Positions 49,345-49,360 of a DNA stretch of 64,000 nt are shown here, piece after piece. The translations under genes and the position numbers were made by a program. The DNA is from Escherichia coli (GTDB taxonomy: Bacteria > Pseudomonadota > Gammaproteobacteria > Enterobacterales > Enterobacteriaceae), in the NCBI RefSeq assembly GCF_046105845.1, contig NZ_CP151004.1; one strand, written 5' to 3'. The notes under the pieces are model-generated. The model had not been told where the DNA came from. It did no database searches and saw only the letters and a list, made by a program, of their open reading frames with translations. Numbering within the stretch: the first letter of the stretch is position 1; every line of letters begins with the position of its first letter.

Positions 49345-49360
49345 ATTAATTTTCTGGCAC
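49345..49360 (+). promoter_or_regulatory. Sigma-54 (-24/-12) promoter of rtcBA
   Basis: TGGCAC-N5-TTGCA is an exact match to the sigma-54 consensus, about 50 nt upstream of rtcB and divergent from rtcR. Confidence 0.85.

Follow-up and report, generated by a model that had tools for sequence, protein, structure and literature searches.

Genes at the rtc locus

The window analysed here, a stretch of 64,000 nucleotides of Escherichia coli DNA (contig NZ_CP151004.1 of the RefSeq assembly GCF_046105845.1), contains the rtc locus with its divergently oriented genes. rtcR encodes a sigma-54 enhancer-binding activator, whereas rtcB and rtcA, on the other strand, encode an RNA 3'-phosphate/2',3'-cyclic phosphate ligase and the RNA 3'-terminal phosphate cyclase, respectively (Table 1). 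The locus is preceded by glpR and followed by malT, an arrangement typical of E. coli. From the sequence of this region, an original prediction had proposed that an exact-consensus sigma-54 promoter, lying in an AT-rich spacer of 187 bp between rtcR and rtcB, drives the RtcR-activated expression of the rtcBA operon.

The identity of RtcR was established by its score against the NCBIfam equivalog NF038308 (848.8 bits, for a cut-off of 650), by a match of its N-terminal, CARF-like domain to PF06956 (285.8 bits) and by the presence of the AAA+ sigma-54 interaction domain PF00158. The GAFTGA loop is found at residue 265 and is followed by a C-terminal DNA-binding region. RtcA matched the equivalog NF003247 with 773 bits (cut-off 333). 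Since the alignment to this profile begins at residue 2 and rtcA of K-12 has one codon fewer, the true start of rtcA is likely to be position 50639. The NCBIfam models of the RtcB family did match the rtcB product, with scores that do not reach the curated cut-offs set for specific sub-families. A query of 331 nt (49150..49480), comprising the first 72 nt of rtcB, was 100% identical to a RefSeq-annotated rtcB record, and the length and position of the gene match those of b3421 in K-12. Profile matches, RefSeq annotation and comparison with K-12 thus bear out that rtcR is divergent from rtcBA. The proposed size and composition of the spacer were also found to be right: the start codon of rtcR ends at 49221 and rtcB starts at 49409, which leaves 187 bp (49222..49408) with an A+T content of 69%, as compared with 49% for the window.

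The rtcR-rtcB region is 100% identical to that of E. coli ETEC1738 and is present in 4856 of the 5426 complete E. coli genomes. The other 570 complete genomes gave no match to the rtcR-rtcB junction, and in E. coli AMSCJX03 (locus L007, 4057..4822) an IS1 element has taken the place of the beginning of rtcR, the entire control region and the 5' portion of rtcB. These two observations indicate that a sizeable minority of strains no longer have the Rtc control region or have it disrupted. The neighbouring glpR gene, which is a pseudogene in the K-12 MG1655 annotation, is intact in the window (46883..47641, plus strand; 252 residues; equivalog score, 552.8 bits).

Table 1. Coordinates of the genes and control features of the rtc locus, numbered from the first nucleotide of the window
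Feature	Position	Strand	Basis
rtcR, sigma-54 enhancer-binding activator, 532 aa	47623..49221	-	ORF; NCBIfam NF038308; PF06956, PF00158; GAFTGA
Dyad ACGATAT-TTCA-TTATCGG, candidate RtcR enhancer (UAS)	49242..49259		Conservation; centred at about -130.5
IHF-like site AAACAATGAATTA	49315..49327	+	Match to WATCAANNNNTTR at 8/9 specified positions; centre at -60 relative to the predicted start
Sigma-54 -24/-12 element CTGGCACGACGGTTGCA	49354..49370	+	GG at 49356-49357, GC at 49368-49369; PWM, ChIP-seq site OS35, conservation
Predicted start of transcription (C; position -1 is A49380)	49381	+	19-nt rule of PMC4591121; ApC primer
Leader, 28 nt, purine-rich, with the rtcB ribosome-binding region	49381..49408	+	Direct reading
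rtcB, RNA 3'-phosphate/2',3'-cyclic phosphate ligase, 408 aa, first gene of the operon	49409..50635	+	ORF; RefSeq annotation
rtcA, RNA 3'-terminal phosphate cyclase	50636..51655	+	NCBIfam NF003247; K-12 annotation

A sigma-54 element in the rtcR-rtcB spacer

Direct reading of positions 49100..49600 located the sequence TGGCACGACGGTTGCA at 49355..49370 on the plus strand, thus in the sense of rtcB and 54 nt before its ATG (49355-49409 = -54). The motif had been assigned to 49345-49360, an interval that is shifted by -10 nt and covers only the TGGCAC hexamer; this shift of 10 nt is the sole error of the original prediction. The GG and GC doublets are exactly 10 nt apart, and the element conforms to the pattern TGGCAC-N5-TTGCW as well as to the extended form YTGGCACG-N4-TTGCW. 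We conclude that the 17-mer listed in Table 1 is almost certainly the -24/-12 element by which the rtcBA promoter of E. coli (rtcBp) is recognised.

The pattern TGGCAC-N5-TTGCA occurs in its exact form only once on the two strands of the window, where 0.04 occurrences are expected by chance, and at least one exact copy was present in 4 of 100 shuffled windows. Sequences with up to two mismatches to it were not enriched in the window (20 observed versus 26 expected), which means that only the exact match is informative. The position-weight-matrix (PWM) scan that had been suggested as a check was carried out with a matrix derived from 40 published intergenic E. coli sigma-54 sites, the rtcB and rpoH sites being left out as both lie in the window. 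The rtcB site scored 17.1 bits and ranked second of about 128,000 positions on both strands of the window, just behind the sigma-54 promoter of rpoH. As a score at least equal to that of the rtcB site was reached somewhere in 64 kb of random sequence in 17.5% of Markov simulations, the PWM score is not decisive by itself. What is decisive is the combination of the score with the location and orientation of the element, within a divergent spacer of 187 bp and 54 nt before an ATG.

The description of the element as an exact consensus holds for its core, but not for its overall quality: its score with a published PSSM is only mid-range (11.16, versus 14.09 for the best E. coli site; PMC4591121), and the native rtcBA promoter was found to be very weak in vitro, the -24/-12 element of nifH being substituted for it in assays (PMC9650030). 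The weakness in vitro may perhaps be tied to the G+C-rich ACGG spacer of the element.

Identity with the characterised K-12 promoter and transcription start

The rtcBA promoter itself is already known and has been experimentally characterised in E. coli; the present observation is correct but ordinary. The founding paper on this promoter, reportedly with primer-extension mapping of the start, is that of Genschik et al. 1998 (J Biol Chem 273:25516), cited by the later studies referred to below. Table 1 of Bonocora et al. 2015 (PMC4591121) lists, as OS35, a sigma-54 ChIP-seq peak with the motif CTGGCACGACGGTTGCA and rtcB as the downstream gene; this site has a fold-above-threshold of 17, a predicted start 28 nt before the gene and the mention 'experimentally confirmed' from EcoCyc. 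Zhao et al. 2010 (PMC2831329) give tttcTGGCACGACGGTTGCAATtatc, at -54..-37 from the start codon, among the known sigma-54-dependent promoters. The activity of PrtcBA reporters depends on RtcR (PMC5175333, PMC9650030), and PrtcBA becomes constitutively active with a form of RtcR that lacks the CARF domain (PMC9650030).

All bases from 49347 to the ATG of rtcB are identical in the window and in K-12 MG1655. Seven substitutions or indels distinguish the two sequences; all are within the upstream part of the spacer (49286..49346) and they spare the -24/-12 element, the IHF-like core and the dyad described below. The 17-mer, its distance to the ATG, the predicted start and the divergent rtcR are the same as for K-12 rtcBp (OS35). 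The element of the window is therefore K-12 rtcBp in another strain, and the proposal that rtcBA is expressed from it through sigma-54 and RtcR finds support in the ChIP-seq data, the EcoCyc entry and the RtcR-dependent reporters of K-12. The present analysis established the promoter element, the identities of the genes and the architecture seen across species; sigma-54 occupancy and RtcR dependence are taken from the literature on the identical K-12 sequence.

The rule used in PMC4591121, by which transcription starts 19 nt beyond the centre of the motif (here 49362), predicts that the rtcB transcript begins at C49381, 28 nt before the ATG, a distance equal to the value tabulated for rtcB. 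In the study of Kotta-Loizou et al. 2022 (PMC9650030), an ApC primer spanning -1/+1 was used, together with ATP, for transcription from native PrtcBA in vitro, in agreement with the sequence ACA at 49380-49382. Among aligned E. coli strains, the leader is invariant except for strain-specific point changes at 49379 and 49383, the former falling just upstream of the predicted start.

Conservation of the promoter within and beyond Escherichia

TGGCAC and TTGCA are invariant in seven E. coli strains, which cover the range of identities among the matches. The sole change inside the 16-mer is a G-to-A substitution in the N5 spacer of one of the seven strains, while the spacer farther upstream varies. 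The identical 17-mer is found in four other Escherichia species or lineages.

A scan for RtcR with one genome per species yielded 29 loci, 26 of which had usable upstream sequence. In about 20 of these 26, the best sigma-54 PWM match is 127-197 bp from the start of rtcR, on the strand that points away from it. Loci with such an element include those of Klebsiella oxytoca, Intestinirhabdus, Superficieibacter and three Pseudomonas, of Iodobacter and Accumulibacter, of Desulfobulbus, Desulfovibrio and Desulfogranum, of several Verrucomicrobia and of one Calditrichia MAG. They thus span Gamma-, Beta- and Deltaproteobacteria, Verrucomicrobia and Calditrichia.

The genes placed under the element differ between these taxa. 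The promoter drives rtcB-rtcA in Escherichia, Klebsiella and Desulfogranum, and rtcA-rtcB in Desulfobulbus and Desulfovibrio, whereas rsr and YrlA Y-RNA-like genes, sometimes with tRNA genes, precede rtcB in Superficieibacter, Intestinirhabdus and Calditrichia. That the same arrangement of element and rtcR recurs in distant phyla with differing downstream genes implies that the divergent rtcR/sigma-54 promoter module is old and widespread; E. coli carries it in its minimal form.

Several details of these operons may be added. In other taxa, tandem YrlA Y-RNA-like genes (two or three copies), tRNA genes or both, as well as rsr, lie between the promoter on the rtcR side and rtcB; the YrlA or tRNA genes are at 360..674 in locus L012, 343..716 in L029, 12..322 in L021, 2137..2209 in L015 and 1784..1851 in L014. 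Pseudomonas sp. GD03944 and Accumulibacter have a tRNA gene shortly downstream of the promoter and on the same strand. About 160 nt separate the predicted start from rtcB in Klebsiella oxytoca (L011), versus 28 nt in E. coli, and this long leader did not match any Rfam family.

An IHF-like site upstream of the promoter

The search for an upstream IHF site, which had also been suggested, disclosed the IHF-like sequence of Table 1, whose strand and phasing are conserved among the proteobacterial loci compared. In Escherichia, Iodobacter, Accumulibacter and three Pseudomonas, IHF-like matches are situated 39-41 nt upstream of the 17-mer on the same strand. In Klebsiella and Superficieibacter, this offset is only 29 nt, which brings the match nearer to the 17-mer by about one turn of the helix. 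Exact IHF matches at those offsets were present in 5 of 8 independent lineages, whereas 5000 shuffling trials gave 0.004 on average and at most 1; the E. coli site is imperfect (8/9). A publication refers to 'the rtc IHF binding site' but does not give its sequence, and its supplements give none of the sequences of the UAS, IHF site and promoter of the hybrid construct (PMC9650030). The site at 49315..49327 would lie between the enhancer and the promoter and would probably be bound by IHF.

A candidate RtcR enhancer

The sequence of the RtcR enhancer was described as 'not known' in a 2016 review, and in the later literature that we searched we found no paper defining it. A search of the sequence upstream of the promoter, as the original prediction had recommended, did provide a candidate, the dyad of Table 1; its role as an enhancer is suggested by conservation alone. 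The core of this dyad, CGATA-N6-TATCG (49243..49258), is unique in the window, with 0.08 occurrences expected, and the dyad is 22-38 nt upstream of the ATG of rtcR. It was found at the homologous position in 11 of 13 intact loci from Escherichia, Klebsiella, Intestinirhabdus and Superficieibacter, a count that includes all the non-E. coli loci. The two exceptions are the nearly identical ETEC1738 record, which was outside the set of loci fetched, and E. coli S1-KEN-07-A (L003), in which a T-to-G change at the homologue of 49247 converts the left half from CGATA to CGAGA. This natural half-site variant could serve to probe the role of the dyad.

The sequence immediately beyond the dyad has diverged across the enterobacterial loci. 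The changes within the dyad are symmetric, the two halves being ACGATA/TATCGT in Klebsiella, GACGATAA/TTATCGTC in Intestinirhabdus and GCGATAA/TTATCGC in Superficieibacter, which is the pattern expected of a dimer binding site. Of 17 loci, 14 had GATAA/TTATC in this segment, compared with 5.4 +/- 1.9 in shuffles. These comparisons point to the dyad as a candidate enhancer for RtcR.

A GATAAT hexamer on the minus strand, i.e. the strand of rtcR, overlaps the dyad, which would then overlap the leader or promoter of rtcR. A simple consensus scan found no sigma-70-type promoter for rtcR itself (49222..49300, minus strand). The overlap hints that rtcR may be autoregulated, and we speculate that the binding of RtcR to the dyad could affect the transcription of its own gene. 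A fuller proposal can be made, in which a dyad of the form ACGATAW-N4-WTATCGN is the RtcR enhancer, rtcR is autoregulated in the manner of PspF, and a phase-locked, IHF-induced bend at -60 delivers RtcR to the polymerase; we advance it tentatively, giving it slightly less than an even chance of being correct.

Three other sequences were considered as regulatory sites and discarded. The block GGAAATCTCCGTTTACGG (49275..49292) was examined as a possible UAS; its conservation in Escherichia does not extend to Klebsiella, Intestinirhabdus and Superficieibacter. Strings loosely similar to it occur in Accumulibacter and Verrucomicrobia. A TATC-N6-GATA motif beside the start of rtcR in Pseudomonas and Accumulibacter was not retained as independent evidence for the enhancer, one of its halves being the Shine-Dalgarno sequence (GGAT) of rtcR. 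Lastly, the palindrome AATTAAGC-T-GCTTAATT (49331..49347), just upstream of -24, is perfect only in the lineage of this strain, and K-12 and five other strains carry GCTTATTT at this position; the palindrome is unlikely to represent a conserved binding site.

Alternative explanations for the -24/-12 element

We considered the possibility that the motif is occupied by sigma-54 but non-productive, rtcBA being transcribed mainly from another promoter, such as a weak sigma-70 promoter in the spacer. Most of the 135 published sigma-54 sites are indeed without demonstrated transcription (PMC4591121), and the weakness of native PrtcBA in vitro (PMC9650030) would fit with such a situation. If this were the case, however, a PrtcBA-lacZ fusion should not need RtcR, as it does, nor be turned on by a CARF-less activator. 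RtcR-independent rtc induction, possibly from 'alternative promoters', has been reported for Salmonella. In the window, a simple consensus scan of 49150..49450 found no sigma-70-like hexamer pair on either strand. Together with the 'experimentally confirmed' status of the promoter in EcoCyc and the conservation, across phyla, of its position and orientation beside rtcR, this makes a non-productive site very improbable.

It is still harder to believe that the consensus match is a functionless chance occurrence in an A+T-rich spacer. An equally high PWM score is admittedly found somewhere in 17.5% of random 64-kb sequences and near matches (up to two mismatches) occur at chance frequency, yet the exact pattern is expected only 0.04 times per window, the element is invariant within Escherichia while nearby bases of the spacer vary, equivalent elements are found at a similar distance from rtcR in distant phyla, and sigma-54 occupies the site in published ChIP-seq data. 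We attach an equally negligible probability to the idea that an element on the opposite strand, CTGTCCTGATAATTGCA (49367..49383, minus strand), which shares the TTGCAA palindrome, drives rtcR. Its PWM score of 13.5 bits, the fourth highest in the window, comes mainly from this shared palindrome, and at -24 it carries GT rather than the essential GG. The evidence accordingly favours a productive sigma-54 promoter that serves rtcBA.

Proposed mechanism of activation

The sigma-54 RNA polymerase binds an element of this kind as a closed complex and, as is characteristic of the sigma-54 family, cannot open the DNA unaided. According to the literature, the CARF-like domain at the N-terminus of RtcR keeps the activator inactive until the inhibition is relieved by signals of RNA damage, in the form of tRNA fragments with 2',3'-cyclic phosphate ends, RtcA and RtcB being required. 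At the promoter of the window, active RtcR would oligomerise on an upstream enhancer, at about -130, and a bend in the DNA at about -60, probably caused by IHF, would carry it by looping to the polymerase. The GAFTGA loop of RtcR would then contact sigma-54, and ATP hydrolysis would open the promoter. Transcription is predicted to begin at or near C49381, yielding a leader of 28 nt followed by rtcB and rtcA.

Comparison with related systems and significance

The pspF-pspA locus of E. coli has the layout proposed here for rtc, i.e. a divergent activator gene, an enhancer near or overlapping the promoter of this gene and an IHF site in between; there too, the products of the regulated operon feed back on the activator. 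The two systems differ in that RtcR has a CARF domain that acts in cis, whereas PspF is devoid of such a domain and is inhibited in trans by PspA. The sequence of the PspF enhancer also differs from that of the rtc dyad. A PspA/PspF analogy for Rtc was drawn in PMC9650030.

The rsr promoter of Salmonella Typhimurium is likewise described in the literature as an RtcR-dependent sigma-54 promoter that is divergent from rtcR and drives an RNA-repair operon. In this rsr-yrlBA-rtcBA operon, rsr and Y-RNA-like genes precede rtcBA, whereas E. coli is devoid of them; Superficieibacter and Intestinirhabdus share the longer, Salmonella-like layout.

A conserved RNA-repair response of bacteria is controlled at the rtcBA promoter. 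This response influences how cells survive oxidative stress, the cleavage of tRNA by toxins and antibiotics that target the ribosome. The rediscovery of the promoter adds nothing new for E. coli. The modest new value of the analysis is in the proposal of an enhancer dyad and in the IHF-like site, whose phase is conserved; the upstream architecture would aid the design of reporters and the modelling of Rtc induction.

Other features of the window

The sigma-54 promoter of rpoH, CTGGCACAGTTGTTGCT, is located at 2386..2402 on the plus strand (17.6 bits; rpoH ATG at 2443). It corresponds to site OS36 of Bonocora et al. 2015 (PMC4591121), which has a fold-above-threshold of 47, and the start predicted for it precedes the ATG by 30 nt, in agreement with the table of that study. 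The sequence AAGGCATGTTTTATGCA, at 32387..32403 (plus strand) inside glgA (31891..33324), is identical to the ChIP-seq site IS43 and points to glgP; the fold-above-threshold of IS43 is 49 despite its weak motif (PMC4591121).

Between glgP and glpD, the window carries a chaperone-usher fimbrial operon of seven genes (36273..43464, plus strand), which encode four fimbrial subunits, two PapD-type chaperones and one usher of 863 residues. glgA and rtcB are about 7.5 kb farther apart in the window than in K-12, which indicates that the fimbrial block is absent from K-12. Two small RNAs scored above the Rfam gathering score, RyhB (18938..19002, plus strand; 83 bits) and ES036/CssrF (43843..43885, plus strand; 46.8 bits), the latter being just downstream of the fimbrial block, beside the 3' end of glpD.
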